Assembly (NCBI GenBank): GCA_016218495.1
Contig: JACRDU010000094.1
Span: forward strand, 42,608 to 106,607
Length of the DNA: 64,000 nucleotides
Source: Elusimicrobiota bacterium
GTDB lineage: Bacteria; Elusimicrobiota; Elusimicrobia; UBA1565
Direction: 5' to 3'
The notes below the pieces were generated by a model that saw only the letters and a program-made list of their open reading frames with translations, was not told the origin of the DNA and did no database searches. The position numbers and the translations under genes are program-made. Positions 9,809 through 28,035 of this stretch are shown here, piece after piece; the stretch's first letter is position 1; each line of letters begins with the position of its first letter.

Positions 9809-10853
9809 GCGACCCCGTAGCCAGGTCGGCTTCGTAGCGCTGCGCCGGGAGGGCCCCGGCCGGGAAGTCGGCGTTGAGCAGCACGGAGAGGGCCGGGGTG
9901 AGCAGGTCCCTACGGCTCAGCTCGACCTCGTAGGTCCGCCCCCCCAGCAGACGGGCCGAAGACGCGGCCGGGAAGACCGCGTCGAAGCCTCCCCGGTCGG
10001 CGAAGACGCGCCTCAAGAACTTGTCGGCCTTGCGCTTGGACCAGCGCTGCCGGTCCACCAGCGCGGCGCGCAGGGCCGCCGCGCGCCGCGCGGCCCCGCA
10101 GTCGACGAGCTCCTGCGGCGTGCGCGCCGGACCGCCCTCGCCGTCCAGGGCCTCCTCGAGGGTGCGCGGACAGCGCTCCGGGGACGGAGCGGTGAGCAGG
10201 AAGCCCCGGACGAGCTCCACGGCGGCTTGGCCGTCGGCCGGGTCCGGAGCCGGGGCGGGCGGCGGGGGTAAGACGAAGGCGACGGGTTTGGGCGCCGGCG
10301 GCCTGGCCGGAGCCGGCGCGGGGACCGGCCGGGAGGGCGTCGCCGCGGGGATAGGCGGAGCGGTCGGCGTTACCGGGGCGACCGGGGCCTCGGGCGCCGG
10401 TCGCCCGCCGCGCCAGGCCAACCCCAGCGCCGCCAGGCCGACCAGCCCCGCCACGGCGGCCACGGAGTAAATCGCCCCCCGGATGCCCTTGAGGGCCGCC
10501 TCGGCCGCCTCGAGCCGGGCCCCCAGGCGGGCCAACTCGTCGCGGGCTCCTTCCATGGCCGCGCGTTGGGCTACGACGCTCTCCACGACCTCGAGCTTGA
10601 GCGACAGCGCGTCGCGCTCGTTGGCCCGCCGGGCCGCCGTATAGGCGTCCAGGGCGGCGGCGGAGCGGGCCTGGCTGGCGCCGCGGTCCCTGGTGTCCAT
10701 CAGCACGGCCAGGAGCGGGACCTCCCCCGCCTCCGTCCAACGCGAGTTGTCCGAGTCGAAGCGTTCCTGCGCCTGGACCAGGGTCCCGCGGCCGAAGTCG
10801 GGCAAAGACAGCAGAGTCTCCGCCTCCAGGGGGCCGCAGACGCGCTTGTCCAT
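9798..10853 (-). CDS. Membrane-anchored protein with an N-terminal DUF4339 (GYF-like) domain, one TM, a Pro-rich linker and a C-terminal domain of unknown function.
   Basis: The start is re-derived at MDKRVCGPLEAETLLSLPDFGRGTLVQAQ…W…AGEVPLL (DUF4339-like pattern). TM IYSVAAVAGLVGLAALGLAW, then PAPEAPVAPVTPTAPPIP… It lies 15 nt downstream of the PorV-like gene. The 5' extension of ORF 9798..11279 overlaps that gene in another frame and is rejected. Confidence 0.55.
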   Translation of the reverse strand: MDKRVCGPLEAETLLSLPDFGRGTLVQAQERFDSDNSRWTEAGEVPLLAVLMDTRDRGASQARSAAALDAYTAARRANERDALSLKLEVVESVVAQRAAMEGARDELARLGARLEAAEAALKGIRGAIYSVAAVAGLVGLAALGLAWRGGRPAPEAPVAPVTPTAPPIPAATPSRPVPAPAPARPPAPKPVAFVLPPPPAPAPDPADGQAAVELVRGFLLTAPSPERCPRTLEEALDGEGGPARTPQELVDCGAARRAAALRAALVDRQRWSKRKADKFLRRVFADRGGFDAVFPAASSARLLGGRTYEVELSRRDLLTPALSVLLNADFPAGALPAQRYEADLATGSLRP

Positions 10854-10867
10854 CAGGGCGTAGTACT

Positions 10868-12253
10868 TCACGGGGTTAGGATGCCCGGGCCCTGTTTCAG
10901 ACGCAAGGCCTCGATCAGCTGCCGGCGCTGCGCGTCGGTGGGATGGGCCTCGAACGCCGCGCGCAGCTGCGCCTCGGCCTCCGTCCCGCGGCCTTCGGCG
11001 GCGAGGCAGCGGGCCAACCCGAGGCGGGCGTCGACGACGTCGGGGCCGTTGGAGCCGTCCGCCTCGGCCGCCGCCAGCGCGGCCTCGAAGTCGGCGCGGG
11101 CCGTCCCCAGGTCGCTGCGCACCGCGGCCAGGCGCCCGCGCAGGACCAGCCAGCGCGTGCGTTGGCCCGGCTGCCCGGCTTGGAGGAGCGGCTCGGCCTC
11201 CTGGAGGTGGCGCGCCGCCGCGTCCAGGTCCCCGCCCATCAGCGCGGCTTCGGCCTTGCCCAGGTGCGAGGTCAGCCACAGATGGCGCGACACCTCGGGC
11301 ATCGGCGCCCGCCCGGCGTCGGGGGGCGCAGGCGCCTTAGGCTCCGCCCCGGCCGAGGGCCCCCAGCGCAGGGCCGCGCTGACGCGGTGGGCGCTGCCCA
11401 GGTCGCCGAAGGAGACGAAGGCGTAGTCGAAGCGGAAGGCAGGGGCGACCCAGCCCACGCCGGCGCTCAGGCCCAGCCCGGCGTCGTTGCGCATGTCGTA
11501 GCCCAGGCGCAACGGCAGCCGACCCAGGGCCAGCGTCTCGAGGCCCACCGCCACGACGGGGTCCTCCAGGCGCTTCTTCGTCACGTCGAGCGCCAGCGTG
11601 GTCTGCTGGCCGCGCAGGCTGCGGGTATAGGCCCCGCCCAGGCGCAGCTGGGTGGGCAGCTTCTCGGAGGCGCGCTGGAACTTGACGTCCGGCCCCGCGT
11701 TGCGCAGCGCGGCGCCCAAAGCGGCCCCCGGCAGCGCCGCGGGCCGCCACAGCGCCCCGGCGTCGAAGGCCATCGTCTGAGCGGTGACCGCCTCGATGGA
11801 CTCGCGTATGTACTTCACGGCACCGCCGACGGCCCAGGTCCCGCCGAAGCGCCGGCCGTAGCCTCCCGACAGGGCCAGGTCGGAGATCCCGTAGCTGCCC
11901 AGGCCGGCGCCGGTCCGGTTGGCGATGGTCGTCTTCGGGACGTCGCCGAAGCTCAGGTAGTTGAGCTGGGCCCCCCAGCCCCGGCGCGCGGCGAACGAGG
12001 CGTATTCCTGGCTCACGCCCTCGAAGTACTGGTTGTGCATGAAGACGGCCTCGTTGCGCTCCACGAAGCCCAGCCCGCCCGGGTTGTAGAGCAGGGCGTT
12101 GGCGTCCGAGGCCAGCGCGGTGTAGGCTCCACCGAGCGACACCGGCCGCGCGTCGGCGTCGAGCGAGAGGAACTCGAAGGGGTGCGCGCCCGGCCCGGCC
12201 TGGGCGGGGAGGGCCAGCAGCAGGGCCAGCGCGCAGGCCGCGAGGCGCCTCAT
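10868..12253 (-). CDS. PorV-like (T9SS shuttle / UPF0164-FadL-like) outer-membrane beta-barrel protein with a C-terminal TPR-like helical domain.
   Basis: ATG at 12253..12251 overlaps the TGA of the giant gene (ATGA). Signal peptide MRRLAACALALLLALPAQA. PorV-family N-terminal signature …RPVSLGGAYTALASDANALLYNPGGLGFV…, then beta-strand-rich sequence ending ~res 330. A helical, Ala/Leu-rich C-terminus follows (…GDLDAAARHLQEAEPLL…ARLGLARCLAAEGRGTEAEAQL…). Confidence 0.65.
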   Translation of the reverse strand: MRRLAACALALLLALPAQAGPGAHPFEFLSLDADARPVSLGGAYTALASDANALLYNPGGLGFVERNEAVFMHNQYFEGVSQEYASFAARRGWGAQLNYLSFGDVPKTTIANRTGAGLGSYGISDLALSGGYGRRFGGTWAVGGAVKYIRESIEAVTAQTMAFDAGALWRPAALPGAALGAALRNAGPDVKFQRASEKLPTQLRLGGAYTRSLRGQQTTLALDVTKKRLEDPVVAVGLETLALGRLPLRLGYDMRNDAGLGLSAGVGWVAPAFRFDYAFVSFGDLGSAHRVSAALRWGPSAGAEPKAPAPPDAGRAPMPEVSRHLWLTSHLGKAEAALMGGDLDAAARHLQEAEPLLQAGQPGQRTRWLVLRGRLAAVRSDLGTARADFEAALAAAEADGSNGPDVVDARLGLARCLAAEGRGTEAEAQLRAAFEAHPTDAQRRQLIEALRLKQGPGILTP

Positions 12254-15200
12254 CGGATGACCCCGATCTTCACCACGACGGGCTCCGCGCCCGGGCTCTT
12301 GATGACGGCGAAGTAGCCGCCCGACGCCACGTCCTCCCCGCTGGAGTTGCGCGCGTCCCACTGCACGGTGCCGGTACCCGAATCGGTGCCGAAGGAGGCC
12401 ACCTCGCTGCCGGTCAGGGTGTAGATGGTGATGCGCACCGAGGCCGGCAGGTTGTCGAAGAGGATGCCCGACAGTGGGTCGCCGCGGCTGAAGGCCCGGC
12501 CCTCGTCGGGGTTGCCCCCGCTGGGCTTGTACGGGTTCGGATAGACGGTCACCGAGGAGAGGTTCGCGGCCACGGCGCCAATCAGCGAGAAGAAGCTGAA
12601 GTGCGGGGTATGCCCCGTCACGGTGCGCGCCGTCTCGTCCACCGACGCCGAGAACTCCTTCTTCCACTTGCCCGAAGGGGCGTCGTAGGTGACGATGCTC
12701 AGGTTGGCGGCCCGCAGGGTCGTGCCGTCCACCACGCCGTCCCCGTCGCTGTCGGGGTAGTTGAAGACCAGGGCCGCCGTCTGCCCGCCGGCCAGCAGGC
12801 TCTGCCCGCTGCCCAGGTTCACCTCGAGCGTCGCCCCGATGGAGACCACATCGGCGGCGTGGGACGGCGCGCCGGCCGGGTTGACCTGGACGGTGACCAC
12901 CGTGGTCGAGGCGCTCACCGCGCCGGCCGGGATGAGCACCTTGGTGACCACCGCGCTGCCCGACTCGGCGGCCGCTATGGTGTTCGACACGGCGTTGTTG
13001 ACGGTCTGCTCCTTCTTGACCCGCCCCCCGCCCTGGTCGGTCTCGCGCACCTCGAAGTTGACCGGGTCGACCGACACGGAGACGAGGCCGGGCGAGGGGT
13101 CGGAGTTGGAGAAGACGTCCGTGGCCACGGCGCGCAGGTCGTACTCCGCCGGCGCCAGGCCGGTCACGTCCCAGTGCACGAAGTAGGGGTGGTCGGCGTC
13201 GGGGTTCGCGTGCTGGAGGTTCGCCGCCGGTATGGCCGTCCAGGCCGCGCCGCTGGAGGCCCGGTACTGGAACAGGACCTGGCGCGTGCGCTCCGGCTCG
13301 CCGCTGACCAGCTCCGCCATCACCAGCACGCGGTTGCCGCTGATGCGCTTGCCCGAGGCCGGCACCTTGATGGCGGCGCGCACCCCGGACAGCGAGCCCA
13401 GGGCCGGCGCCGCCGTCACCGCCCCCGGCCCGGCCTCCTCGCGCCCGCAGCGGTTGAGGGCCCGCAGTCCGAACTTGTAGACGACGCCGTTGGCTAGCGC
13501 CCCGGTCGTGTACGAGGTCGCCGACGCCCCGAGCGCGGCCAGCGGCGCCGCATAGTCGACCGTCCCCGTGCCGCTGTCGTAGTAGAGCCGGTAGCCGGTC
13601 AGGCCCGGGTCCGGGGAGGAGACCCAACTCAGGCGGATGACGCTGCCCGGCAGGCTCTCCGCGCTCAGCTCGCCGGCCCCCAACGGGGTGCTGGGCAAAG
13701 TGACGAACGACACCACGGCGTCGAAGGCGGTGAAGGCGCCGCCCAAGCCGCGGTTGCGCACCCGGTAGTAGTAGGTCGAACAGCCCTGCAGGCCGGCATC
13801 GGCGTGGACGGCGGTCGTCCCGGTGAAGACCGAGGCGTAGGAGGCCGAATCGCTCGAGCGCTGCACCTCGGCGAGGGTCCCGGCGGGGTTGCCGTTGAGC
13901 CCCCAGCTCAGGGTGGCGCTGGTCGCGGAAACGGCCGCGGCCGTGCCCGCCGGCGGCAGCGCGGGGGTGTAGACCGTGGCGGCGGCGGAGAGGGCCCCCG
14001 CCCGGGTCTCGGCCACCGCCGCTACGGCGAGGCCTACGGCCGAGTTCGGGGACAGCCCCGTCTGCACGAAGGCCGGCGCCGAAGGCGCGGCCAGCAGGGC
14101 GCCCGTGGCCGGAACGCGGGCCTGGTAGCCCTCGGCCCCGGCGACGGCGGCCCAGGTCCAGGAGACCGACGACGCCCCGAGCGCCGCCCCCGAGGGAGCG
14201 CCCGGCGCGCCCGGCGCGGCCCCGCCGAAGTCCCAGTTGCGGTTCCCGCCGGAATTGACGCTGTCGCCGGACGCGGCGCGGATGGGAATCCCGCCGGAGG
14301 CGTCGGAGTCCGAGACCTGGGCGCGGGAGACCGCCGCCGTGCCGGTGACCACGAGGTACCACGGGGACCCTGCCGTCGAGCTGCGCAGGCGCAAGCGCGG
14401 CGTCAGGCCGGGGGCGCCCAGGGACAGCGCGGCCACGGTCAGCGTGCTGCCGGCCTGCACGGTGACCGAGGACTGGGACGCCGCCTCCAGCGCGTTCAGG
14501 GCCGTGAAAGGCGAGAACCTCAGGCGCTGTTCGCCGGTGCCGGTCAGGCGCAGGGTGCCGGCGGGGAACTGCGCGGGACCTCCGGGCTCCAGCCAGTCCC
14601 CGCGCACGCGGTGGGTGAAGGCGCCTCCGTCGAAAGCCCCGGTCGTTATGGTGACGCCTCCGTTCAGCTCCAGCGGACCCAGCGCGCGCAGATAGGCGAT
14701 GCCGTTGGTTCCGAAACCGACCTCCAGGTTCTTGAAGGGGTTCCCCGCCAACGGGGCCACCGAGGCCCTGTTCGGCGCGCTCATCTGCATGAAGGTGACG
14801 GTGCTGGCCTGCGCGTTGAAGTACCCGCCGGTCTGGGTCCAGGCCCCGATGCGCAGGTTTCCGGCCCCGCCCAAGGTGAAGGTGCCCGCCAGCAGCGAGA
14901 AGGAATGCGCCTCGACCGTGGCCCCGTGGACGAAGGCCGCCCCGCTGGAGTTCGTCACCTCGACATGCGGGAGCTGGGGACGGCCGGTGCCCGTGACGAC
15001 TTGATAGCTGGACCCGTAGAATTCCAGCATGTCGCCTGCGCTGTAGGCGCAGCAATACGGGCTGTCGATGCGCATGTTCCCGCCCACGCGCACGCGCCCG
15101 TTCCCCCACTGGAACCGCCCGTACCCGCTCATCAGCACGTCGCCGGTCACGGTCACCGTGGCATTGGATATCTGGAAGACCCCGGTCGTGAGCTGGACCG

Positions 15201-18200
15201 TCCCGACGACGAGGCCCGTCGTCGCGACGACGGCGGGCCCGCCATATGACCCGCTCAGGGTCAAGCTGGAAAGGCTCAGCGGCAGGTCGAAGAAGGTGAA
15301 CTTCACCAGCGGGGTGGAGAAGACGACGGAGTCGCCCGACCTGGGAACCCGGTCGCCGACCCAGTTGGCGGCCTCGGAGGCATTGATGCTCGTCCCGCCC
15401 CCGTCCCAATAGCGCGTCGCGGGACCCTCCGACGTCCATGTCGAGGCCGACGCGGCGTACTCCGTCGCCGTTCCGACGGCATTGCGCGCGCGCACGCGGG
15501 CATAGTAGGTCGCCTCGGGGGTCAGCCCCGCGAATGAAGCCGAGAAAGCGTCCGCGCTCCAGGCGCCTGCCGTCTCCGCACCGAAGCCGGCCAGCGTCGA
15601 GACCGCGGCCTGGAACTGCGTGCCGGACGGGTTGCCCCCCGAGCCCCAGGAGAAGGTCAGGGAGGACGGGGACACCATGGTGAACGCGATGCCCGTCGGG
15701 ACGGCGGCGGCGGTGTAGGTCGAGGCCGTCACGGTCCCCGTCTCGGTGCCGGCCGCGTTGCGCGCCTTGGCGGTGAAGGTGTACTGCGTGTTCGGCGAGA
15801 GCCCCGTGAACTGGCGCGCCGTGCCGGGGTCGTAGGACTCGTGCGTGGCCAGGGTCGCGCCGTTCGTCCCGCCGACGACATAGGCCCGCCCGGCGATGAC
15901 GGCCCCGGCGGCCCGGCCGCGTGCCGTGGGCAAGCCGGTGCGCAGCGTCCAGGCGTCGGCGGACGGGTCGTACTCCTGCGTCACGCCGATGGGCCCCGCC
16001 GTGGCGGACCCCCCGAAGAGGTATATTTTCCCCCCGATGGCGGCGAAGGCCGGGTAGGAGACGGCGAAAGGGGCGCCCGACACCGTCGACCAGGAATCCA
16101 GCCCGGGGTCGTAGCGCATCCCGCTCGAGAGGGTGACGCCGTCGTAACCCGCCAGGGAATAGAGCCTACCCCCCACCTCGGCCGCCGCCATGGCATGGTT
16201 GATGCCGGGCAAAGAAGCCCGGGCCGACCAGGCCCCGGCGTCCGCGTCGAAGGCGCTGACCGCGGCGATGTAGCCCGACGCGCCCAGGCCCCCCAGGCCG
16301 ACGAGGCTGCGGCCCAGCACGGCCAGCCCCATGCCGGTGCGAGAGCTGGGCAAGGGTTGGAGCGAGGTCCAGGCGTTCGCGCCGGGGTCGTAGCGCCTGT
16401 TCCCCGACAGCAGCCCACCGGAGTTCTCGCCTCCGACGGCGTAGACGGCGCCGCCCAGCGCGACGGCGGCCAGCGCGTTGGCGGCCGCCGGCAGCGGCGC
16501 CTTCGTCGTCCAGGCGTCGGTGAACGGGTCGTATTCGGTGTTGGCCGTCACCGAAGCGGTGGTCCAGCCGCCCAGCGCGTAGAGCCGTCCATTCGCCGCG
16601 GCGGCGGCCAATGCGTAGCGCGCCGCCGGCAGCGGCGCCTTCACCGTCCACGCTTCGCCGTGCCAGCCCGCGTAGACGCCGTCCTTGGCGATGTTCGTGC
16701 CCGACAGACCCGCCCCGAGGTTCGTGAAGGCCGGCGTCGGCGAATAGGCCGCGACGACCAGGGTCGTGGTGGAGATTTCATCAAAGACGATGGCGGTCGG
16801 GGCCTGAATCAGCGTGATGGTCGAGCCCAGCGCGGTGTAGGGGCCGGAGGGCACGGTGGACACGCGGGCGTAGTAGCTGGTGTTGGCCGAAAGGCCTGAG
16901 AATGCCGCCGAGAGGTTCAGGGTCGCAGACGAAGTCAGCGTCCCCGAGAAGTCGGCCGCCGTCGCTACCTGGGCGGCGTACTGGGTTCCGACGGGGAAGG
17001 ATGAGCCCCAGTTGAGCGCCAAGCCCGTGACAGAAACGCCGCTGACCGGGGCCGAAGAGAGCGACCAGGCTGTGAGCACGCCGGTCCGCGTGCTCTGGAT
17101 GGCGTCGTAATCCGTGGTCACCCCCACGGCGTTTCGCGCCCGTACGCGGGCGTAGTATGTGGCGGACGCCAGAAGGCCGGTGAAGGTCGCGGACGTGGCC
17201 CCGGCCGTCCAGTCGCCCACGGCTTCCGAGGGGAATGCGCCCATAGTCGAGACCGAAGCCTGGAACTCGGTCCCCGCCGGGTTCCCGTTGGCGCCCCACG
17301 ACAGCGTCAGCGAAGACCCGCCGACCATCGCGATGGCCGAGCCCGTCGGGACGGCGGCGGCGGTGTAGGTCGAGGCCGTCACCGTCCCCGTCTCGGTACC
17401 GGCCGCGTTGCGCGCCTTGGCGGTGAAGGTGTACTGCGTGTTCGGGGACAGTCCCGTGAACTGCCGCGCCGTGCCGGGGTCGAACTCCTCGTTCGCCGCC
17501 AGCGCGGGCCCGTTCACGCCGCCGACCACGTACGCCCGGCCGGCGATGACGGCACCGGCGGCCCGGCCCCGGGTGGTGGGAAGGCTCGTGCGCAGAGCCC
17601 AGGCGTCGGCGGACGGGTCGTACTCCTGGGTCACGCCGATGGGCCCCGCTGTGGCCGAGCCCCCGAAGAGGTATATCTTCCCTCCGATGGCGGCGAAGGC
17701 CGGGTAGGAGACCGCGAACGGGGCCGACGACACCGCCGACCAGGAATCCAAGCCGGGGTCGTAGCGCGTCCCGCTCGAGAGGGTGACGCCGTCATAGCCC
17801 GCCAGCGAATAGAGCCTACCCCCGACCTCGGCCGCCGCCATCGCATGGTTGATGCGTGCCAGCGGCCCGCGCGAGCCCCAGGAGTCCGTCGCCGGGTCGT
17901 AGGCGTCCACCGCCGTGATGTAGCCGGACCCTCCCAGCCCTCCCAAGGAGTAGATCTTCCCACCGAGCACGGCCGCGCCCACCCCGGTCCGGGCGGACGG
18001 CAGGGCTGCCGCCGAACTCCAGGAGTTCGTCTGGGGGTCGTAGCGCTGATGGACCGACAGGAGCCCGCCCGAGTCCTCCCCCCCGACGGCGAATATCTTC
18101 CCTCCCAGGCTGACGGCGCCCAGCGCGTTCGAGGCGCTTGGCATAGCGGCCTTCGCCGTCCAGGCGTTCGCCTGCGGGTCGTACTCGGCATTGGTCGAGA

Positions 18201-21200
18201 GCGCCGACACGCCCCAGCCGCCCAAGGCATAGATGCGTCCGCCCGCGGCGGCGGCCGACAGCCCGTAGCGTGCCGACGCCATCGCGGTCTTGGCCGTCCA
18301 GGCCTCCCCGTGCCAACCCGCGTAGACGCCGTCCTTGGCGATGTTCGTGCCCGAAAGGCCGGCCCCTAGGTTCGTGAAGGCGGGCGTCGGGGAGTAGGCC
18401 GCGACGACAAGGGTCGTGGTGGAGATTTCATCAAAGACGATGGCGGTCGGGGCCTGGATCAGCGTGATGGTCGAGCCCAGCGCGGTGTAGGGGCCGGAGG
18501 GCACGGTGGACACGCGGGCGTAGTAGCTAGTGTTGGCCGAAAGGCCTGAGAATGCCGCCGAGAGGTTCAGGGTCGCAGACGAAGTCAGCGTCCCCGAGAA
18601 GTCGGAGGCGGTCGAGAGCTGGGCCGTGTATGGAGTCTCGGACGGGAAGCCTGAGGCCCAGTTCACGCTCACGCTGGTGCCGAAGACGCCGGTGAACTGG
18701 CCGGAGGAGATGGTGGGGGGGTACATCCAATCGACGCGGCCCGAGGGGTCGTTCTCGAAGCCGGGGCCCGACTTGGAGCCGCGATAGTCCCGCATGGTGA
18801 TGCGCGAGCCGGCGCCCAGCAGGCTGCCGTCGATGTTGACGCTGACGGCGGCCAGGAATTCCATCGCGGTGATGGTGGCCACATGCGTGCCGCCTTGGAA
18901 TTGGACTCCGGTGGAGGCCGTCACGGTCATCGACGCGATGCTCAGAGGCCCATTGGCGGTGGCGTCGACAAGCAGTCCGACCGCCAAGGCGTTCAAGGTA
19001 GTCGAAGCCAATGTGATGCCTACGCTCCCGCCTCTGAGCTGCACGGCCCGCCCGGAGCCTCCCGTGGCGTGGAAGGCGGTCCGCTCCGCCAGGGTGCCCG
19101 TTCCCGTGAAGATGTCGAGGGCGTCCGGGCCGGCGACATAAGAGTCGCGCAGGCTGATGCCGGAGGAACCCGCCACCATGAAGGCTGGCACCGAACCCGA
19201 GCCGGTGACGGTGCTGCGGGCGATGAGGGCCCGCTGGCCGAACTCGGCATAGACCCCGTAGCCCCCCCCCAGGAGCCAGGAATCGGACACCCATGTGTCC
19301 GGCGCTGAGTAGAGGTAGAACGCCTTGGAAGTCGGGCCGGAAGCCGCCGCCGTGCTCTTTGACAGGGTGTTGGAGCTGGCCGCGAAGCCGAAGGTGACGG
19401 CGTTGCCCGCCAAGCTGTAGAGATAAGAGCGCGAGATCGTGTTCGTCGAGGCGTTGTCTAGGTAGAGCGCCGAGAATCCCGCGCTTCGGGCCGTGACGGT
19501 CGAACGGTCGATCAGGTTGCCGTTGGCGTTGGCGCCCAGGAAGGCCGCATAGCCCGTCGTGTTGATGATCATGTTCAAGACGATGCTGTTGGAGGCCGCC
19601 GTCGTCATGTACAGCGCGTAGGCCGCCGGAGCGTCGGACAGCAGCGTGCTCTGCTGGATGGTGTTGGCGTTGGCGCCGTTGCTAAGGGCCATAGCCGTGC
19701 CGCTCGACGAATAGATGTAGCAGGATGTGATGCTGTTCGAGGAAGAGGCGTCAATCGACGCTCCTCCCCCCGTGCCGTAGGCGGCCAAAGTCGAGCCCTG
19801 TACCAGGTTCCCGTCCGAGAGGTCCGTCAGGCTGAGAGCGCTGCCTATGACGCTGCGCAGCACGCTGCCAGATACCGTGTTAAACGAGGAAGACTGGGCG
19901 ACGAAGGCTGAGAGATTCCCGGCGATTACGGTGGAGTCCTCGATTCGGTTCCAGTTCGCGCCGGCGATGAGGGTGGCGGCGATGCCCGTGGCGCTGTAGA
20001 TGTAAGCCCGCGAGACGGTGCTGTGGGTCACCCCCGCCATCGCCAGGCCGTATTCCGCGGTCCCCGTGGTCGTGATGGTGCTCTCTACCACGCTATGGTA
20101 GGAGCCGCCCATGGACAATCCCCGCCCCACCGAGGAACGCAGGAAGCTGCGGGCGATGGTGGTCGAGGAGCTCCCGGCGGATATCGAGGCCGCGTAGTTT
20201 CCAATGGCGCCGGCCGTCGCCGTGCTCCGGTCCATCACGGAATTGACGGCCCCGAGCATGACGGCCACGCCCGAGGTGTTGTGAGCCGAGCTTTCAAGGA
20301 TGGTGTTGTCCGGCCCGGAGAGCCAAAGGGTGTGGTTCGCCGCGGAGGCGTTGCTGAAGGTGCTGCGATAGAGGGTGTTGTGGTGGGCGCTGGCGCCGTT
20401 GAAGTAGACCGCTCGTCCCACGCCGACCGCCACGGTCGAGAACTCGACACGGCCGTAGGACTCCATGTCGATAGCGGCCACCACGACCTGGGTGCTCGAC
20501 TCGACAAGCACCCTTGAGACCGTCACATAGCCCGATGTGACCGCTATGCCCCAGTTGACCGCCGCGCTGGGGGCGATGCGCAGGGTTTCGATGCTGACGC
20601 TCGTGGCCTTGACCTGGAACGCCGCGGTGGAGGCGGCTGGCGGGTCGACGGTGGGGGGAGAGGACAGGGCGGTGTCGCCCAGGATGCGCAGGCGGTAACC
20701 GTTGGTCGCCTTGTTGGCGACCGTAACCTGTTCTTGATAGGTGGCGCTGTCGCGGATGACGACGCAGGTCTCGGCGCTCAGCGACGCCGGGACTGCCGCC
20801 AGCGCCGCGGTGAGCGTCGTAAAGGGGGCTCCGGCCTTGGCTACGTCGAGGCTCAGGGCGCAGCCGGGCGGCGCGGGGTACGCTGTCGTCCGAGTCGAGC
20901 CCAGGACGCCGTAGGCCGTCTCGACACCCACGGAATTGCGGGCCTGGACGCGGAAATACCAGGTCGTGAGCGCGGACAGAGAGGTCATCGTCGAGACGAG
21001 GGAAGTCTGCCAGGAGCCGGTCTGCGAGGAGGCTCCGGAATTGAAGTCGGAGGCCGTCGACAGATGAACGCGGAACTCGGTGCCGCCGGGGTTGCCGTTG
21101 GCCAGCCACTGCACGGCGACCGAGGTGGCGAAGACGCCGATGAAGGCGGGGGCGGCCGTGGAGGGGACGGCGGCCCAGGTGTAGGTCGAGAAGGCGGAAC

Positions 21201-24200
21201 TCTCCCCGGTCTCGACGCCGGCCCTGTTGCGCGCCTTGGCCTTGAACGAGTACTGCGTGTTCGGCTGCAGCCCGCTGAAGTGCCGCGCCCGCGCCATGTC
21301 GAACGACCAGGCCGTGCTGGTCACCGCCACGTCGGTGCCGCCTCCGGCCCCGTAGAGCTGGCCGTTCAAGACCGCCAGCCCGAACGCCGTGCGCGCCGGG
21401 GCCAGGCTACTGTACCTGGCCCAGGCGTCGACGGCGGGGTCATACTCCTCCACCAGCCCGCTGGCCGCGACGGGGTCCCGGCCCCCGACGACGTAGATCT
21501 TGCCGCCCACGGCCGCCGAGCGCCCCGCGTAGCGGGCCGGCGACGGCAAGACCGTCGGGGAGGACCAGGAGCCCAAGCCGGCGTCGAAGGCGGCGTGCAG
21601 GGTGGAGGGGACCCCGGAGGCCGTGCTACCCGCCACCAGGTAGACCTTCCCGCCCAGCGCGGCCGCGGCGCCTATCCCCCAGGCCGTCGGCACCGCCGTC
21701 CCGGTTGCCCAGGCACCCGCCGCCGGGTCGAAGGCCTCGTTGGCGCTCATCAGGTTCGACCCGCTCCAGCCGCCCAGCACGTGGACGCGGCCGTTGAGCT
21801 CGACGGCGCCCGCATAGGAGCGCGCCGTCGGCATCGCCGTCTTGCTGCTCCAGGCGTTGGCTGCGATGTCGTAGGCGTAGTTCGTCGTCAGCACCGGCCC
21901 GCCGCTGGCCCCGCCGACGACGTAGATGGTCCCCCCGACCCGCGCGGAGGCGAAGTCGGCGCGAGTGGCGGGCATGGCGGCCAATGCGCTCCAGGCCCCC
22001 GACGAGGGGTCGTAGGCCTCGGCGGAGGAGATGTAGGTGGTGCCGTCGTGGCCACCGTAAGCGTAGAGCCGGCCGGCGTAGGCGCAGAGGCCCGAGTTGT
22101 TGCGACCGGTGCTCATCGGGGGCAGCCACGCCCAGGCGTCGGACTTCCAGCCAGCGTACGCCCCGTCGCGGGCGATGTTGACCCCGCTCTGCCCGGCGTC
22201 TGAGCGCAGCGCCCCGGCCCCGGCGGCGTGGGCCCAGGCCACCAGGCTGTGCGAGGAGACCTCGTCGAAGAAGACCGCCGTCGGCGACTCGATGAGGGTG
22301 ACCGTGGAGCCCAGGGCGGTGAAGGGCCCGGAGAGGCCGGTGGAGACGCGCGCGTAGTAGCTGGTGTTGGCGCTCAAAGCCGAAAAGGATGCGGCGAGGT
22401 TCAGGGTCGTCGACGAGGCCAGGGTCCCCGAGAAGTCGGCAGCAGTAGACAGTTGAGCGGTATATTGGGTCCCGCCGGGGAAGCCCGACGCCCAGCCCGC
22501 CGTCAGGGCGGAGGTCCCCACCGAGCTCAAGCCCACGGCGGACAACATCCCGGGCTCCGCCACGAAGACGCTGCTCTCCGTGCCCCAGCCGCTGCGCGCC
22601 AGGCCGCCGTCGATGGTCTGCAGGCGGATGTAGTAGGTCGTCCCGGAGCGGATGTTGGCGGAGGCCGTGCCCAGGTCCACGCGGAAGTAGAGCCCGTGCT
22701 TGGCCGTCGCGTCCCCCGGCCAGACCCGGTAGGCCGGGCGCGGGTACGGGGTGTAGAGCGGCGAGCCGTTGTTCCAGGACACGGCGAAGCTCCCCGGCGA
22801 GGTCACGCGCAGGCCGTCGGGGGAAAGGGTCATCGGCGCGCTGGCCATGACCAAAGCGTAGGACAGGCTGGCCGTGGCCGAGGCCCCGTCGTAGGCCCCG
22901 GCGGCCCACTTGACCGTCATCGTCCCCCCGCCGGGCGCCAGGTCCAGGGTGACCGTATCCACGGCCGGGGCGCTGGGCGGCGCGTTGTACGGGGCCGCGT
23001 CGTTAAGCAGCAGGACTTCGTCCGTGCCTTGGTCCCAGTTGGCCACCAGCGCGTCCAGGTCCCCGTCGCCGTCGTAGTCCGCCCAAGCCGCGTCGACGCT
23101 GGCGTCGCCGGTCTCGGTCAGCAGGATTTTGGCGAAGACGCCACCGTCGTTGCGCAGCAGGTACTCGCGGGAATTCGTGCCGGACCCCGCCACGAGGATG
23201 TCCGCGTCCCCGTCGGCGTCGTAGTCGCCCACGGCCACGGCATAGGACGAAGAGGTGCCGGGGATGAGGGTCTTCACGAAGGCGCCGCCCGTGTTGCGCA
23301 GCAAGGCGATGTCGTCGAACCAGCCGTTGGCGACCACGGCGTCGAGGCGTCCGTCGCCGTCGAAGTCGCCCCAGGCCACATCTGCCGAGGAGCCTGCGGT
23401 ACCAGACAGGGTTACCGGGGTCAAGGTCCCGCCGTCGTTGCGCAAGAGGACCTCGTCGCCGGAATCGTTGGCCAGGATGGCGTCGAGGTCCCCGTCGTTG
23501 TCGTAGTCGCCCCAGGCGATGGCCTTCGTGTTGCCGCCGGTGCCTTCGATGGTGACGGCGCTCAGGACCCCGCCGTCGTTGCGCAGCAGGATTTCGTCGG
23601 CATCGGCCGGCGTCGCCTGCGCCAGCAAGGCGTCCGGGTCGCCGTCGTTGTCGTAGTCGCCCCAGGCCACGGCCACGCCCGACCCCGCCGTGCCGGGGAT
23701 GGTGACGGGCGCCCAGGTCCCCGCGTCGTTGCGCAGCAGGACGGCCCCCGAGTTGTCGCTGTTGGTGGCCAGCAGGGCGTCGAGGTCCCCGTCCCCGTCG
23801 GCGTCGGCCCAGGCCACGGCCCCGGCGTTGCGGGCGGAGGAGGTGATGACGACCTGGGTCAAGGTCCCGGCGCCGTCGTTGCGCAGGATGAGGGCGTCCA
23901 TGTTGGCGCTGTTGGCCACGAAGGCGTCCAGGTCCCCGTCCTTGTCGTAGTCCCCCCAGGCGACCCCGAAAGAGATTAGGCCGCTGCCCAGTTGGGTGCG
24001 CACGGAGAACAGCGGTGTGCGCGTGGAGCCCAGGACGGTGAAGGGGCCGGCCGGGGCCGTGGCCACGCGGGCGTAGTAGGTGGCATAGAGCGCCAAGCCC
24101 GTGAAGGTCGCCGAGAGGTTGAGCGTCGCCGACGAGGCCACGGTCCCCGAGAAGTCGGAGACTGAGGAGAGCTGGGCGGTGTATTGGGTGCCAGCCGGAT

Positions 24201-25332
24201 AGTTCGAGGCCCAATTGACCGTCAGGCTGGTGCCGAACACCCCCGAGAACGGGGCTGACGCGATGAAGGCGTAGGCGTCCTTCAGCACCCGGTAGTCCGC
24301 CCCGTTGCCCAGGCCGCTCAGGTAGACCCCGCCCGAGCCGTCGACAGCGACGCCGCGCGCCTCGCTGTTGACCGAGCCATCCGCATAGAGCGTCGTCGAG
24401 ACCAGGGTCCCGTCGGCGTCGTAGCGCCAGAGTCGGAAGTCGTTGGCCGACGCGCCGGCGGAGCTTCCCGCCGCGAAGACCCGGCCGCCGGCGTCCACAG
24501 CCACCGCATAGCCGAAATCGCCGCCGCTGCCCCACGTGCGCGACCAGGCCAAGGTCCCGGAAGGGCTGTACTTGAGGAGCAGGAAGTCGGGGCCGCTATA
24601 GCCGACGACATAGACATTCCCCGAAGCGTCGATGGTCACGCCCCGGGCCCGCTCCGATTGGCCCGTCGTGTAAGTGCTGAGCCAGACGATGTTCCCCGAG
24701 GGGTCGAACTTGATGGTCTTGATGTCGTCATTGGCATCGCCGTGGTGGCCCACCGCGTAGGCGTAGCCGGAGGCGTCGACGGCAAGGGCCCCCATTCCGT
24801 CGTTGAGGCCGCTGTCGTAGGAGCGGCTCCAGACCACGGCGCCCGTGGAGGCGTATTTGATCAATCGCCAGTCCGAACCGCTGGTGCCGCCGACGATGAT
24901 GGATCCGTCGGCAGCGCTACCCGCCCCCCAGGCCAGGTCCGTCCCCCCGCCGTCGTAGCTCCCCGTCAAGGCCACGCCGCCGGTGGAGGTGAACTTCACG
25001 AAGCGAAAGTCCAGGTTCGAGCCGTTGAAGGTCTGCCCCGCCGCGTACACGTTCCCCGCGGCGTCCAGCGAAAATCCCCCGGCCGCGTCGAGGTTGCCGC
25101 TGTCATAGGTCCAGGTCGACAGAATGACGCCGGCGGACGAGAGGCGGACGATGTTGATGTTGCTGCCGCTGTTGCCGGAGGTATAGACGGCGCCGGAGGC
25201 GTCCAAAGCCAACCCGTGCGCCGCCTCGGAATCCCCGCCGTCCCAGACCAGGTCCCAGAGCGGCGCCGCGGCGGCGTAATTAGGGAAAGCCGATGCCAGC
25301 AGGGACGCTAATAGGAAAGCCCGGGGTGACAT
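12250..25332 (-). CDS. Giant (4360 aa) secreted multidomain surface protein / adhesin-like T9SS cargo.
   Basis: Signal peptide MSPRAFLLASLLASAFPNYAAAA. SBBP-type beta-propeller repeats (DASGNVYVVG…). Seven FG-GAP/VCBS repeats (WGDYDNDGDLDA…RNDGG). Three 6-7-blade Kelch propellers (…YAYGGHDGT…, …YALGGW…). A PbH1-type right-handed beta-helix (repeated S.xNTI..S / NxxxxN ladders). >12 FN3-like modules with the recurring motif TAQLSTxSDFSGT…YYARV. The C-terminal 80 aa match the T9SS type-A CTD (…VTVYPNPYKP…VRITIYTLTGSEVASF…WDARNSSGEDVASGGYFAVIKS…VVVKIGVIR). Confidence 0.85.
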   Translation of the reverse strand: MSPRAFLLASLLASAFPNYAAAAPLWDLVWDGGDSEAAHGLALDASGAVYTSGNSGSNINIVRLSSAGVILSTWTYDSGNLDAAGGFSLDAAGNVYAAGQTFNGSNLDFRFVKFTSTGGVALTGSYDGGGTDLAWGAGSAADGSIIVGGTSGSDWRLIKYASTGAVVWSRSYDSGLNDGMGALAVDASGYAYAVGHHGDANDDIKTIKFDPSGNIVWLSTYTTGQSERARGVTIDASGNVYVVGYSGPDFLLLKYSPSGTLAWSRTWGSGGDFGYAVAVDAGGRVFAAGSSAGASANDFRLWRYDADGTLVSTTLYADGSVNSEARGVAVDGSGGVYLSGLGNGADYRVLKDAYAFIASAPFSGVFGTSLTVNWASNYPAGTQYTAQLSSVSDFSGTVASSATLNLSATFTGLALYATYYARVATAPAGPFTVLGSTRTPLFSVRTQLGSGLISFGVAWGDYDKDGDLDAFVANSANMDALILRNDGAGTLTQVVITSSARNAGAVAWADADGDGDLDALLATNSDNSGAVLLRNDAGTWAPVTIPGTAGSGVAVAWGDYDNDGDPDALLAQATPADADEILLRNDGGVLSAVTIEGTGGNTKAIAWGDYDNDGDLDAILANDSGDEVLLRNDGGTLTPVTLSGTAGSSADVAWGDFDGDGRLDAVVANGWFDDIALLRNTGGAFVKTLIPGTSSSYAVAVGDYDADGDADILVAGSGTNSREYLLRNDGGVFAKILLTETGDASVDAAWADYDGDGDLDALVANWDQGTDEVLLLNDAAPYNAPPSAPAVDTVTLDLAPGGGTMTVKWAAGAYDGASATASLSYALVMASAPMTLSPDGLRVTSPGSFAVSWNNGSPLYTPYPRPAYRVWPGDATAKHGLYFRVDLGTASANIRSGTTYYIRLQTIDGGLARSGWGTESSVFVAEPGMLSAVGLSSVGTSALTAGWASGFPGGTQYTAQLSTAADFSGTLASSTTLNLAASFSALSANTSYYARVSTGLSGPFTALGSTVTLIESPTAVFFDEVSSHSLVAWAHAAGAGALRSDAGQSGVNIARDGAYAGWKSDAWAWLPPMSTGRNNSGLCAYAGRLYAYGGHDGTTYISSAEAYDPSSGAWSALAAMPATRADFASARVGGTIYVVGGASGGPVLTTNYAYDIAANAWSSKTAMPTARSYAGAVELNGRVHVLGGWSGSNLMSANEAFDPAAGAWATGTAVPTAWGIGAAAALGGKVYLVAGSTASGVPSTLHAAFDAGLGSWSSPTVLPSPARYAGRSAAVGGKIYVVGGRDPVAASGLVEEYDPAVDAWARYSSLAPARTAFGLAVLNGQLYGAGGGTDVAVTSTAWSFDMARARHFSGLQPNTQYSFKAKARNRAGVETGESSAFSTYTWAAVPSTAAPAFIGVFATSVAVQWLANGNPGGTEFRVHLSTASDFNSGASSQTGSWQTSLVSTMTSLSALTTWYFRVQARNSVGVETAYGVLGSTRTTAYPAPPGCALSLDVAKAGAPFTTLTAALAAVPASLSAETCVVIRDSATYQEQVTVANKATNGYRLRILGDTALSSPPTVDPPAASTAAFQVKATSVSIETLRIAPSAAVNWGIAVTSGYVTVSRVLVESSTQVVVAAIDMESYGRVEFSTVAVGVGRAVYFNGASAHHNTLYRSTFSNASAANHTLWLSGPDNTILESSAHNTSGVAVMLGAVNSVMDRSTATAGAIGNYAASISAGSSSTTIARSFLRSSVGRGLSMGGSYHSVVESTITTTGTAEYGLAMAGVTHSTVSRAYIYSATGIAATLIAGANWNRIEDSTVIAGNLSAFVAQSSSFNTVSGSVLRSVIGSALSLTDLSDGNLVQGSTLAAYGTGGGASIDASSSNSITSCYIYSSSGTAMALSNGANANTIQQSTLLSDAPAAYALYMTTAASNSIVLNMIINTTGYAAFLGANANGNLIDRSTVTARSAGFSALYLDNASTNTISRSYLYSLAGNAVTFGFAASSNTLSKSTAAASGPTSKAFYLYSAPDTWVSDSWLLGGGYGVYAEFGQRALIARSTVTGSGSVPAFMVAGSSGISLRDSYVAGPDALDIFTGTGTLAERTAFHATGGSGRAVQLRGGSVGITLASTTLNALAVGLLVDATANGPLSIASMTVTASTGVQFQGGTHVATITAMEFLAAVSVNIDGSLLGAGSRITMRDYRGSKSGPGFENDPSGRVDWMYPPTISSGQFTGVFGTSVSVNWASGFPSETPYTAQLSTASDFSGTLTSSATLNLSAAFSGLSANTSYYARVSTVPSGPYTALGSTITLIQAPTAIVFDEISTTTLVVAAYSPTPAFTNLGAGLSGTNIAKDGVYAGWHGEAWTAKTAMASARYGLSAAAAGGRIYALGGWGVSALSTNAEYDPQANAWTAKAAMPSASNALGAVSLGGKIFAVGGEDSGGLLSVHQRYDPQTNSWSSAAALPSARTGVGAAVLGGKIYSLGGLGGSGYITAVDAYDPATDSWGSRGPLARINHAMAAAEVGGRLYSLAGYDGVTLSSGTRYDPGLDSWSAVSSAPFAVSYPAFAAIGGKIYLFGGSATAGPIGVTQEYDPSADAWALRTSLPTTRGRAAGAVIAGRAYVVGGVNGPALAANEEFDPGTARQFTGLSPNTQYTFTAKARNAAGTETGTVTASTYTAAAVPTGSAIAMVGGSSLTLSWGANGNPAGTEFQASVSTMGAFPSEAVGDWTAGATSATFTGLLASATYYARVRARNAVGVTTDYDAIQSTRTGVLTAWSLSSAPVSGVSVTGLALNWGSSFPVGTQYAAQVATAADFSGTLTSSATLNLSAAFSGLSANTSYYARVSTVPSGPYTALGSTITLIQAPTAIVFDEISTTTLVVAAYSPTPAFTNLGAGLSGTNIAKDGVYAGWHGEAWTVKAPLPAARYALAAAAANGRLYALGGWTTASVTANTEYDPFTDAWTTKAPLPAAANALAAVALGGAVYAVGGENSGGLLSGNRRYDPGANAWTSLQPLPSSRTGMGLAVLGRSLVGLGGLGASGYIAAVSAFDADAGAWSARASLPGINHAMAAAEVGGRLYSLAGYDGVTLSSGMRYDPGLDSWSTVSGAPFAVSYPAFAAIGGKIYLFGGSATAGPIGVTQEYDPSADAWTLRTGLPTARGRAAGAVIAGRAYVVGGTNGATLATHESYDPGTARQFTGLSPNTQYTFTAKARNAAGTETGTVTASTYTAAAVPTGIAFTMVSPSSLTFSWGSGGNPSGTQFQAAVSTLAGFGAETAGAWSADAFSASFAGLTPEATYYARVRARNAVGTATEYAASASTWTSEGPATRYWDGGGTSINASEAANWVGDRVPRSGDSVVFSTPLVKFTFFDLPLSLSSLTLSGSYGGPAVVATTGLVVGTVQLTTGVFQISNATVTVTGDVLMSGYGRFQWGNGRVRVGGNMRIDSPYCCAYSAGDMLEFYGSSYQVVTGTGRPQLPHVEVTNSSGAAFVHGATVEAHSFSLLAGTFTLGGAGNLRIGAWTQTGGYFNAQASTVTFMQMSAPNRASVAPLAGNPFKNLEVGFGTNGIAYLRALGPLELNGGVTITTGAFDGGAFTHRVRGDWLEPGGPAQFPAGTLRLTGTGEQRLRFSPFTALNALEAASQSSVTVQAGSTLTVAALSLGAPGLTPRLRLRSSTAGSPWYLVVTGTAAVSRAQVSDSDASGGIPIRAASGDSVNSGGNRNWDFGGAAPGAPGAPSGAALGASSVSWTWAAVAGAEGYQARVPATGALLAAPSAPAFVQTGLSPNSAVGLAVAAVAETRAGALSAAATVYTPALPPAGTAAAVSATSATLSWGLNGNPAGTLAEVQRSSDSASYASVFTGTTAVHADAGLQGCSTYYYRVRNRGLGGAFTAFDAVVSFVTLPSTPLGAGELSAESLPGSVIRLSWVSSPDPGLTGYRLYYDSGTGTVDYAAPLAALGASATSYTTGALANGVVYKFGLRALNRCGREEAGPGAVTAAPALGSLSGVRAAIKVPASGKRISGNRVLVMAELVSGEPERTRQVLFQYRASSGAAWTAIPAANLQHANPDADHPYFVHWDVTGLAPAEYDLRAVATDVFSNSDPSPGLVSVSVDPVNFEVRETDQGGGRVKKEQTVNNAVSNTIAAAESGSAVVTKVLIPAGAVSASTTVVTVQVNPAGAPSHAADVVSIGATLEVNLGSGQSLLAGGQTAALVFNYPDSDGDGVVDGTTLRAANLSIVTYDAPSGKWKKEFSASVDETARTVTGHTPHFSFFSLIGAVAANLSSVTVYPNPYKPSGGNPDEGRAFSRGDPLSGILFDNLPASVRITIYTLTGSEVASFGTDSGTGTVQWDARNSSGEDVASGGYFAVIKSPGAEPVVVKIGVIR
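15440..18650. repeat. Intragenic tandem duplication, two copies of ~1650 nt (~550 aa each: FN3-Kelch propeller-FN3-FN3).
   Basis: Near-identical DNA at a 1650-nt offset: 16741-16980 vs 18391-18630, 15841-16260 vs 17491-17910, 15680-15840 vs 17330-17490. The flanks (15351-15680 vs 17001-17330) are ~70-75% identical. A 107-aa protein stretch LSTASDFSGT…GEAWT occurs twice identically. Duplicated shadow ORFs appear in the track (16880 vs 18530; 16781..17299 vs 18527..19294). Confidence 0.85.
22950..24000. repeat. Array of 7 FG-GAP-type coding repeats (~150 nt period) within the giant gene.
   Basis: Protein repeats WGDYDKDGDLD / WADADGDGDLD / WGDYDNDGDPD / WGDYDNDGDLD / WGDFDGDGRLD / VGDYDADGDAD / WADYDGDGDLD, each followed by …LLRNDGG…. 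The periodic signature also shows in shadow ORFs 22228..23979(+) and 23003..24535(-). Nucleotide coordinates are approximate. Confidence 0.6.
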
Positions 25333-25352
25333 GGTCTCGGCGCGCCGCCCTC

Positions 25353-25381
25353 AGTATTGGGCCGCGACCACCGGCTGTCAA
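25353..25381 (-). promoter_or_regulatory. Putative sigma70-like promoter for the giant cargo gene (TTGACA-17-AATACT).
   Basis: Minus-strand reading: TTGACAgccggtggtcgcggcccAATACTgagggcggcgcgccgagaccATG. The -35 is a perfect TTGACA and the -10 matches 4/6. The ~20-nt leader contains GAGGG. Confidence 0.35.
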
Positions 25382-25446
25382 CGAGAAATTATCCTGCGAA
25401 TGACAGCTGAAAGCGTCGAAGATGTCATCCGTCAGGGAGCCCGACA

Positions 25447-25475
25447 TTGACAGGGAAGGACCTGCCGGTTAGATT
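25447..25475 (+). promoter_or_regulatory. Putative sigma70-like promoter (TTGACA-17-TAGATT) driving a leaderless or near-leaderless transcript of the 25481 gene.
   Basis: ttgacagggaaggacctgccggttagattctggcATG. The ATG begins 6 nt after the -10 hexamer, and there is no room for an SD. Confidence 0.4.
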
Positions 25476-25480
25476 CTGGC

Positions 25481-25978
25481 ATGAGACAATTACTCCTCGT
25501 CGCGCTCCTGGCCTGGGGCGGGTATTACGCGTTCAAACGGTTCGCCGTCGGCTCGGACGCGTATCAGGCCTATGCGAAATACTCGGAGGCCTACCGCTTC
25601 GGCAAGTGCCCGGAGCTCAAGGAGATGACCGAGGAGAACGCCCTGGCCGACGTGGAGCAGTACTGCGCCTCTTCCACCTTCATGGGCCGTCCGATGCCGT
25701 CGGCGGCGAGCATGGCCAATGACATGGCCATGACCCCTTCCGGGGTCATGCTCAAGATCGTGCGCAAGGTGGAATCCGAGACCAAGGACTCCTCTGGGGT
25801 GGTCACGCTCAAGCTGGTGGAGACGCTGGGCGGAAGCGCGGCGCGCGACCCGGCGTTCAACGCCGCGCCCAGGAAGGTGGTCGCCAGGCTCCGGAAGTCA
25901 GGAGGCGCCTGGAAGGTGCTGGAGGCCGTGAACCCCGACGCCCCGCCCGCGCCGGCGCAAGACGCGCCGGCCCAGTAG
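25481..25978 (+). CDS. Hypothetical protein with an N-terminal TM anchor.
   Basis: 165-aa ORF with N-terminal LLLVALLAWGGYYAF. It is divergent from the giant gene and convergent with the response regulator (3-nt gap). Confidence 0.5.
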   Translation: MRQLLLVALLAWGGYYAFKRFAVGSDAYQAYAKYSEAYRFGKCPELKEMTEENALADVEQYCASSTFMGRPMPSAASMANDMAMTPSGVMLKIVRKVESETKDSSGVVTLKLVETLGGSAARDPAFNAAPRKVVARLRKSGGAWKVLEAVNPDAPPAPAQDAPAQ

Positions 25979-27302: not shown

Positions 27303-27420
27303 CCACCCTAGCCCCGGGCCCGGCCGGAGGGCCGGGCCCGGGGGGCGCGTTTGACACGGCCGCCGCCCGGCGGGTATGATGTTTCTGCTGGAAAGAGAAA
27401 GATTTTTCAGCGGAGGACCC

Positions 27421-28029: not shown

Positions 28030-28035
28030 CCGGCG

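Follow-up and report, generated by a model that had tools for sequence, protein, structure and literature searches.

In Porphyromonas gingivalis, PorU and PorZ, which belong to its type IX secretion system (T9SS), keep their C-terminal domains (CTDs) and are tethered to the cell surface by PorV and PorQ, and PorV is a cargo shuttle (PMC5562754). Genes for the T9SS have been reported to be absent outside the Fibrobacteres-Chlorobi-Bacteroidetes (FCB) phyla (PMC11285876). We analyzed 64,000 nucleotides (nt) of DNA from an Elusimicrobiota bacterium (GenBank assembly GCA_016218495.1, contig JACRDU010000094.1, positions 42,608 to 106,607 of the forward strand); this whole stretch is referred to as the window, and coordinates are those of the window. 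It contains a giant gene whose 4,360-amino-acid product is probably a very large cell-surface binding protein, and the giant gene overlaps a downstream gene for an outer-membrane barrel of the PorV/PorQ family. We consider it reasonably likely that the giant protein is a Sec-exported fibrillar adhesin that is docked through its CTD to its own PorQ-like barrel on the outer membrane.

The PorZ-PorQ and PorU-PorV pairs, which form the attachment complex of the P. gingivalis T9SS, likewise consist of a protein with a type-A-like CTD of the immunoglobulin (Ig) fold and a barrel of the PorV/PorQ family. However, the PorZ model matches only the CTD of the giant protein, and the two are not orthologs. 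PorZ and PorU are components of the T9SS, whereas the cargo here would be a 440-kDa modular fibril. The Elusimicrobiota pair also differs in that its genes adjoin and overlap each other, in the tail of the barrel, which is either a tetratricopeptide repeat (TPR) region or OmpA, and in its host, which unlike Porphyromonas is outside the FCB group. SprB-SprF and other pairs of type-B-CTD cargo and PorP-like proteins in Bacteroidota were reportedly described by Gorasia and coworkers in 2022. The SprB-SprF arrangement is similar in that the gene for a giant repetitive adhesin adjoins the gene for its own barrel, which anchors the adhesin via the CTD, but that system combines a type B CTD with PorP/SprF, rather than a type-A/PorZ-like CTD with the PorV/PorQ family. 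The comparison does not imply gliding motility for the giant protein. Adhesins of the RTX/BAP type, such as LapA and MpIBP, project distal binding modules on arrays of spacers and have one end anchored in the outer membrane. They have type I secretion system signals and N-terminal retention modules, in contrast to the predicted Sec signal peptide and C-terminal Ig-like CTD of the giant protein. The features on which these comparisons depend are as follows.

12250..25332, minus strand: giant gene (open reading frame call, translation, and codon-position G+C)
25264..25332, minus strand: residues 1 to 23, putative Sec-type signal peptide (MSPRAFLLASLLASAFPNYAAAA, followed by P), read from the translation rather than with a predictor
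12562..14217, minus strand: residues 3706 to 4257, family-defining stalk of about three FN3 domains, an Ig-like domain, and a domain of about 170 residues with a DSDGDG loop
12253..12561, minus strand: residues 4258 to 4360, C-terminal sorting domain, T9SS type-A-like, nearest to the CTDs of PorZ and PorU
10868..12253, minus strand: outer-membrane barrel of the PorV/PorQ family, 461 amino acids, with a TPR region at its C terminus (NF033709)

The giant gene is a real gene of an Elusimicrobia bacterium. It is a single uninterrupted frame from ATG to TGA. Its G+C is 0.92 at third codon positions and 0.59 at second positions throughout, and the frame is therefore coding along its whole length. 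The window is about 71% G+C, and spurious open frames are numerous in it. The product, in which Ala, Gly, Ser, and Thr are abundant, has a mass of 440 kDa and an isoelectric point of 5.0. By eye, residues 1 to 23 have the hydrophobic core, and then AAA immediately before a P, of an N-terminal Sec signal peptide. Window positions 10354 to 15720 (5,367 nt) were recovered with 100% identity in an independent Logan assembly (run SRR12113407), a stretch that includes the last 1,156 codons of the giant gene and both genes downstream.

The C terminus places the giant protein in a family. Its last ~650 amino acids, the stalk plus the CTD, are 45 to 51% identical to the C termini of proteins of 1,000 to 1,500 amino acids annotated by NCBI as Elusimicrobia or Elusimicrobiota, several of which have Kelch heads. 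A search of GTDB species representatives with an alignment of the stalk retrieved 21 family loci, 20 of them in metagenome-assembled genomes (MAGs) labeled Elusimicrobia, Elusimicrobiota, or Elusimicrobiaceae and one in a bacterial MAG without classification. Isolate names suggest that the samples came from groundwater, peatland (palsa), and lakes. The first-pass annotation had pointed to Gemmatimonadota, Eisenbacteria, and Bacteroidota for comparison, but these were the wrong phyla, as the source is an Elusimicrobia MAG and the related loci are in Elusimicrobiota or unclassified bacterial MAGs. Family members have a constant stalk and CTD and differ in their N-terminal heads, which are made of SBBP, beta-helix, Kelch, and FN3 modules. 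The CTDs of the family match the C terminus of the PorZ model in 21 of 21 cases (best, 3e-17), TIGR04183 in 20 of 21 (best, 3e-7), and PorU in 12 of 21. When the family CTD profile was compared with the PDB, the PorZ CTD (5m11) was matched at 4.4e-10 and PorU (6za2) at 0.019. One relative is named "T9SS type A sorting domain-containing protein" by NCBI.

The gene directly downstream, which is translationally coupled to the giant gene and was missing from the first-pass annotation, is the most informative feature of the locus. Its ATG overlaps the TGA of the giant gene (ATGA; CCGATGAGG). The product scores 159.2 bits against the PorV/PorQ family model NF033709 (cutoff, 90) over positions 4 to 323 of 326 and is thus within the family. 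Its scores against the equivalog models are below their cutoffs (PorQ, 109.8 versus 220; PorV, 63.2 versus 250; PorV2, 40.9 versus 325), and the Pfam models PorV and UPF0164 match weakly. These scores indicate a member of the PorV/PorQ family that is not an ortholog of PorV or PorQ, with PorQ the nearest. The protein is 100% identical to an NCBI entry, "MAG: PorV/PorQ family protein [Elusimicrobia bacterium]".

In every one of the 23 loci whose downstream DNA could be read, the gene immediately after the CTD gene was of the PorV family. The 23 are the window, 19 distinct related loci (20 fetched copies, with L002 duplicating L001), and three loci reached from the PorV side (L025, L026, and L027). 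Thus, among the loci examined, the two-gene cassette of cargo and barrel is conserved across Elusimicrobiota. The longest member noted, with 5,888 amino acids, lies upstream of a PorV-TPR gene in L027 (1-10004). In L025 (172-1632) the barrel is fused to OmpA in place of the TPR region, and among the PorV-family partners P0232, P0248, P0257, P0270, and L025, some have an OmpA peptidoglycan-binding domain instead of TPR. In L026 (9624-14844) a 126-amino-acid open reading frame that is little more than the CTD (3e-44 with the family CTD hidden Markov model [HMM]) lies before the barrel gene and overlaps it by 4 nt. This locus is a decayed cassette or else one that has been split, with the head and the anchor in separate genes; after its barrel gene come three uncharacterized genes, the first of which resembles a lipoprotein with SBBP-type repeats. 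The CTD HMM found no second CTD-bearing open reading frame in the window or in the flanks of any locus.

The CTD and the barrel also vary together. Over 21 pairs, pairwise identity of the CTDs correlated with that of the barrels (r = 0.94; partial correlation given the stalk, 0.88; Mantel test, 0 of 2000), and the partial correlation of the stalk with the barrel was 0.41. In one subgroup (L011, L012, L013, and L020) both the CTD and the barrel have diverged and the stalk is ordinary. This is the pattern that would be expected of a physically interacting pair.

Pfam was searched segment by segment along the giant protein. The modules that precede the stalk are, in order from the N terminus:

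24268..25263, minus strand: residues 24 to 355, SBBP/delta-60-type beta-propeller (Pfam, TIGR02608)
24013..24267, minus strand: residues 356 to 440, FN3 type A (FN3-A), copy 1 (repeat analysis, hhalign)
22990..24012, minus strand: residues 441 to 781, seven FG-GAP repeats, putative seven-blade propeller (FG-GAP_3)
22549..22989, minus strand: residues 782 to 928, beta-rich domain of 147 amino acids without a family match
22294..22548, minus strand: residues 929 to 1013, FN3-A, copy 2 (repeat analysis, hhalign)
21175..22293, minus strand: residues 1014 to 1386, Kelch module 1, with a conserved 55-residue lead-in, a six-blade propeller, and the C-terminal half of an FN3 domain
20884..21174, minus strand: residues 1387 to 1483, FN3 type B (FN3-B), copy 1 (Pfam, hhalign)
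18721..20883, minus strand: residues 1484 to 2204, PbH1-type right-handed beta-helix of about 720 amino acids (PF13229)
17077..18720, minus strand: residues 2205 to 2752, repeat unit 2 (FN3-A, Kelch module 2, FN3-B)
15430..17076, minus strand: residues 2753 to 3301, repeat unit 3 (FN3-A, Kelch module 3, FN3-B)
14218..15429, minus strand: residues 3302 to 3705, second beta-helix of 404 amino acids, without a Pfam family (predicted structure)

Searches of the Pfam and NCBIfam type recovered every kind of module that the first-pass annotation had read from the translation (SBBP, FG-GAP, three Kelch propellers, beta-helix, FN3, and CTD), at coordinates that it had placed correctly within ~50 to 70 residues. 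Residues 1 to 360 matched DUF5122 (44 bits; cutoff, 27; 2.6e-11) and SBBP (36.9 bits; cutoff, 20.5; 3.5e-9), and TIGR02608 matched the same propeller at 1e-15. FG-GAP_3 scored 149 bits (cutoff, 26.9) in seven stretches, in agreement with the seven repeats that had been proposed. Each is 41 to 50 residues long and all seven have an acidic loop of the D-x-D-x-D-G type, the fifth being DFDGDGRLD, so that the loops appear to be of the Ca-binding type; the seven-blade fold is putative. The FG-GAP/VCBS repeats of integrin alpha chains (PF13517, PF01839) are likewise seven in number, of the same length, and provided with acidic loops, but the integrin context of thigh and calf domains and a beta subunit is missing from the giant protein. 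Large proteins secreted by bacteria commonly contain FG-GAP/VCBS modules. Kelch_1 matched three separate regions, at 143.5, 195.1, and 76 bits, and in each of the three units six blades with the double-glycine signature (AG in one) can be aligned. Beta_helix (PF13229) scored 74.7 bits (cutoff, 25.9; 8e-21) in two stretches, and fn3 was matched at several places.

The finer arrangement of the FN3 modules differs in part from the first reading. The TAQLST..DFSGT..YYARV module, whose recurrence had been noticed, is present in four copies, and its hhalign probability of 98.9 against canonical FN3-B copies indicates that it is a true FN3 domain. Two FN3 domains had been placed after the FG-GAP repeats. 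The second is an FN3-A copy, but the beta-rich domain in the position of the first has no Pfam match and an hhalign probability for FN3 of just 14%. A doubled FN3-Kelch-FN3-FN3 unit had also been described and corresponds to a direct tandem repeat of 1,650 nt, with a third copy that is more distant; however, the FN3 that directly follows each Kelch propeller (modules at 21175-22293, 17362-18459, and 15712-16809) is only a C-terminal half (strands E-F-G; hhalign probability, 97.6). Before each propeller is the conserved 55-residue segment PTxVxFDEVSS...AKDGxYAxW, and five modules of L004 have the identical layout of lead-in, Kelch, and FN3 half. This layout suggests that a Kelch propeller might be nested in a loop of an FN3 domain. 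The suggestion is unproven because the lead-in alone is not significantly FN3-like (hhalign probability, 0.7); when the segments before and after Kelch were spliced, Pfam fn3 matched in the C-terminal half only.

Repeat unit 3 is 75% identical to unit 2 in amino acids and 78% in nucleotides, but the identity is a mosaic, with blocks of 91 to 98% nucleotide identity (the C-terminal half of FN3-A plus the lead-in, and Kelch blades 4 to 6 plus the FN3 half) alternating with blocks of 53 to 71% (Kelch blades 1 to 3, and FN3-B) across 15430-18720. The mosaic fits intragenic recombination or gene conversion; it could reflect gene conversion, partial diversification of the propellers, or an assembly chimera. 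As a consequence, short-read assembly of 15430-18720 may be imperfect.

Module shuffling, which the first-pass annotation had proposed within the gene, extends further, as units are duplicated within the gene and whole heads are also swapped between family members. A single protein of L022 contains SBBP, beta-helix, and Kelch; about five Kelch modules (17 Kelch_1 stretches in 3,691 amino acids) are present in L004; and L009, with >4,175 amino acids, has a beta-helix and a very long FN3 array of dozens of modules. L011 and L012 have SBBP and/or a beta-helix, the latter 31 to 33% identical to that of the giant protein. An HMM of the FG-GAP repeats had no match in any related locus, and FG-GAP is therefore the sole head module unique to the giant protein. 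The description of the domain combination as unusual was thus overstated, as most of the modules recur in relatives such as L022, L004, and L009 and the combination is a fairly ordinary outcome of family-wide shuffling.

The giant protein appears to have two beta-helices of different kinds, because the 404-amino-acid region that the first-pass annotation had left as an unassigned beta-rich stretch models as a passenger-like helix. A single-sequence AlphaFold model of this region was poor (pLDDT, 53). The model was remade with a seven-sequence alignment and predicts a right-handed beta-helix resembling the passengers of autotransporters (pertactin-like), the top structural match being an adhesin-type passenger. 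The passengers of Vag8, pertactin, Hap, and VacA p55 are structurally like this helix, at sequence identities of 8 to 13%. Autotransporters have a C-terminal translocator of 12 strands, but no translocator domain was matched in the giant protein, which ends in FN3/Ig modules and the 103-residue Ig-like CTD, and the helix is in the middle of the protein among many other domains. The identification as an autotransporter was therefore rejected. The sequence profile of residues 3302 to 3705 had no relative in the PDB and no Pfam family. The region had one homolog in a word-indexed search and 529 distant relatives (E <= 0.001) in a full HMMER scan, many of the latter giant and with up to 30 matching stretches each; P0019 (6,191 amino acids) has 30 such stretches. 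The domain starts with W-D-G-G-G...NW and ends with ...LRSS..GTPW...DSDASGG...N.NW.F, and it seems to represent a repeat or helix family that is widespread and undescribed. The first, PbH1-type helix has homologs in the heads of L011, L012, L022, L009, and L021.

If the giant protein is a fibrillar adhesin, the 440-kDa protein would be exported by Sec and would depend on its CTD for passage across the outer membrane. The CTD would be kept on the mature protein and would dock to the dedicated barrel, as in PorZ-PorQ and PorU-PorV. Retention and docking are proposed because the CTD matches PorZ and its neighbor, independently, matches PorQ. The TPR tail of the barrel, which is presumed to be periplasmic, or OmpA in some relatives, might brace the anchor. 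About 14 FN3/Ig spacers and the two helices would form a fibril presenting five propellers, with a head that, by our rough estimate, might project ~100 nm from the cell. Binding would be multivalent, to glycans, particles, or other cells, and Ca-dependent for the FG-GAP propeller; the multivalent carbohydrate- or cell-binding scaffold suggested in the first-pass annotation is a reasonable inference from the domain content. Head modules swapped and duplicated among family members could diversify binding specificity.

Several observations weigh against this proposal. The CTD of the giant protein itself is below the cutoffs of TIGR04183 (16.3 bits; cutoff, 23), Por_Secre_tail (PF18962; 12.6 bits), and FlgD_ig (22.8 bits; cutoff, 27), and Pfam gave weak FlgD_ig/CHU_C matches at the C terminus. 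Retention of the CTD is deduced from its similarity to PorZ and PorU. The co-variation of the CTD with the barrel could reflect co-inheritance of adjacent segments as one recombination block. The domain searches found no ligand, lectin, or catalytic family in the giant protein, and so it is the architecture that suggests an adhesin. No SprA/Sov, PorKLMN, or other core T9SS gene was found among the ~40 window genes scanned, housekeeping genes like those for Tol-Pal, LptD, Rho, PolA, FolC, and RF-1. With no T9SS gene in these 64 kb, and T9SS genes reported to be absent outside the FCB phyla, passage of a 440-kDa protein across the outer membrane is left without an explanation.

One alternative would supply that explanation by making the giant protein a canonical cargo of a T9SS encoded elsewhere in the genome, with a PorU-type sortase that cleaves the CTD, a product that is released or linked to lipopolysaccharide, and the barrel acting only as a shuttle. 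The TIGR04183 matches in nearly all of the family CTDs, the NCBI name of the relative, a barrel that scores above the PorV/PorQ family cutoff, and the role of PorV as a shuttle in P. gingivalis would all be accommodated. However, T9SS type A cargo would be expected in an FCB host, which this phylum is not, and the absence of core T9SS genes from the window counts against this alternative as well. The strict one-to-one pairing and the tight co-variation are better explained by a dedicated partner than by a shuttle of general use, and the nearest CTDs, those of PorZ and PorU, are the two that are uncleaved. For these reasons we regard T9SS cargo as unlikely and continue to favor an adhesin anchored by its own barrel. 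It is about as improbable, in our estimate, that the cassette, of which Elusimicrobiota have many copies, is self-contained and works without a canonical T9SS translocon and motor, in which case it would represent CTD-dependent anchoring in an independent or ancestral form.

The modules themselves might instead indicate a secreted multienzyme that degrades or modifies polysaccharides, with the PbH1 helix as a lyase or glycosidase, the Kelch propellers acting like galactose oxidase or mutarotase, and binding secondary. This seems a little less probable still. No enzyme-specific family reached its cutoff, the mutarotase models scoring 26 to 41 bits against cutoffs of 243 to 416, and the PbH1 helix had no enzyme-specific match among Pfam and NCBIfam-type models and no PDB relative by sequence search. 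The adhesin-type match of the second helix also speaks against an enzyme, and the many FN3 spacers and the conserved anchoring stalk suit a fibril better. That the open reading frame or its number of repeats is an artefact of metagenome assembly is very improbable. Units 2 and 3 do share highly similar blocks several hundred bases long, the Logan contig, which was assembled from the same sample, breaks at 15720, the edge of such a block, and an exact look-up of the 4,360-amino-acid sequence in a protein collection returned no record. On the other hand, one open frame with a uniformly high third-position G+C spans 13 kb, the independent contig is identical over the C-terminal 1,156 amino acids and both downstream genes, and relatives of 3,300 to 5,888 amino acids are present in other MAGs. 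An artefact is credible solely for the repeat copy number.

The domain combination is by itself of little weight, as giants made of propellers, helices, and FN3 modules are common in environmental bacteria, and the giant protein is a further case of the giant modular CTD-bearing surface proteins, a type already known. NCBI already labels relatives of the two products as T9SS type A sorting domain proteins and PorV/PorQ family proteins. A cargo-barrel cassette outside the FCB phyla is more interesting. The Elusimicrobiota cassette, in which the stalk is conserved, the CTD and the barrel co-evolve, and the barrel is fused to TPR or OmpA, was not described in the searchable literature, where nothing relevant was found that linked Elusimicrobia to the T9SS, PorV, or surface proteins with FN3. 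It represents a family found throughout the phylum, in uncultured Elusimicrobiota of groundwater and soil, in which exchangeable heads are carried on a fixed stalk. If these genomes lack a canonical T9SS, then CTD-barrel anchoring can work, or arose, outside the T9SS. If they have one, the known range of the T9SS extends beyond the FCB phyla. The Pfam-less beta-helix domain, with its ~530 distant relatives, and the possible nesting of Kelch in FN3 are by-products of the analysis.

The giant gene is apparently the first gene of an operon that also includes the barrel gene and a third gene, whose GTG overlaps the stop codon of the barrel gene (GTGA). The additional features are:

9798..10871, minus strand: third gene, ~357 amino acids, with one hydrophobic helix, a long proline-rich stretch, and no family match
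25353..25381, minus strand: sigma-70-like match, TTGACA-17-AATACT, upstream of the giant gene (20 nt from its ATG)
25447-25475, plus strand: divergent sigma-70-like match TTGACA-17-TAGATT, towards a 165-amino-acid gene

Both sigma-70-like matches are within the 148-nt divergent intergenic region 25333-25480. They are consensus matches only, two being found where 0.1 was expected from shuffled sequences. There was no promoter-like site between the giant, barrel, and third genes, and the sole terminator-like match in the three-gene run was inside the third gene and no commoner than in shuffled sequences. The third gene is not conserved, as it was absent from the 21 related loci.

For the 165-amino-acid gene (25481-25978, plus strand) no family was matched, and it lacks conservation near the relatives. 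A long open reading frame at 51723-54920 (minus strand), without the family CTD, matches Peptidase_S8 at 1.4e-30 (residues 766 to 992) and, partially, Peptidase_M50 (residues 489 to 526); its true start is doubtful because the frame listed as 51723-56135 overlaps a better-scoring TldD-like gene (54930-56618, plus strand). The operon is flanked by genes for an OmpR-type response regulator (25982-26680, minus strand) and a PAS histidine kinase (8729-9808, plus strand), which could regulate it. Upstream of the giant gene, at a distance of 2 kb, is a Tol-Pal cluster (Pal, CpoB/YbgF, and TolB; 27376-30164, plus strand). In L005 (19355-21721), TolB-CpoB-Pal genes are also within 10 kb of the family gene, in a different arrangement, and the proximity is probably a coincidence.

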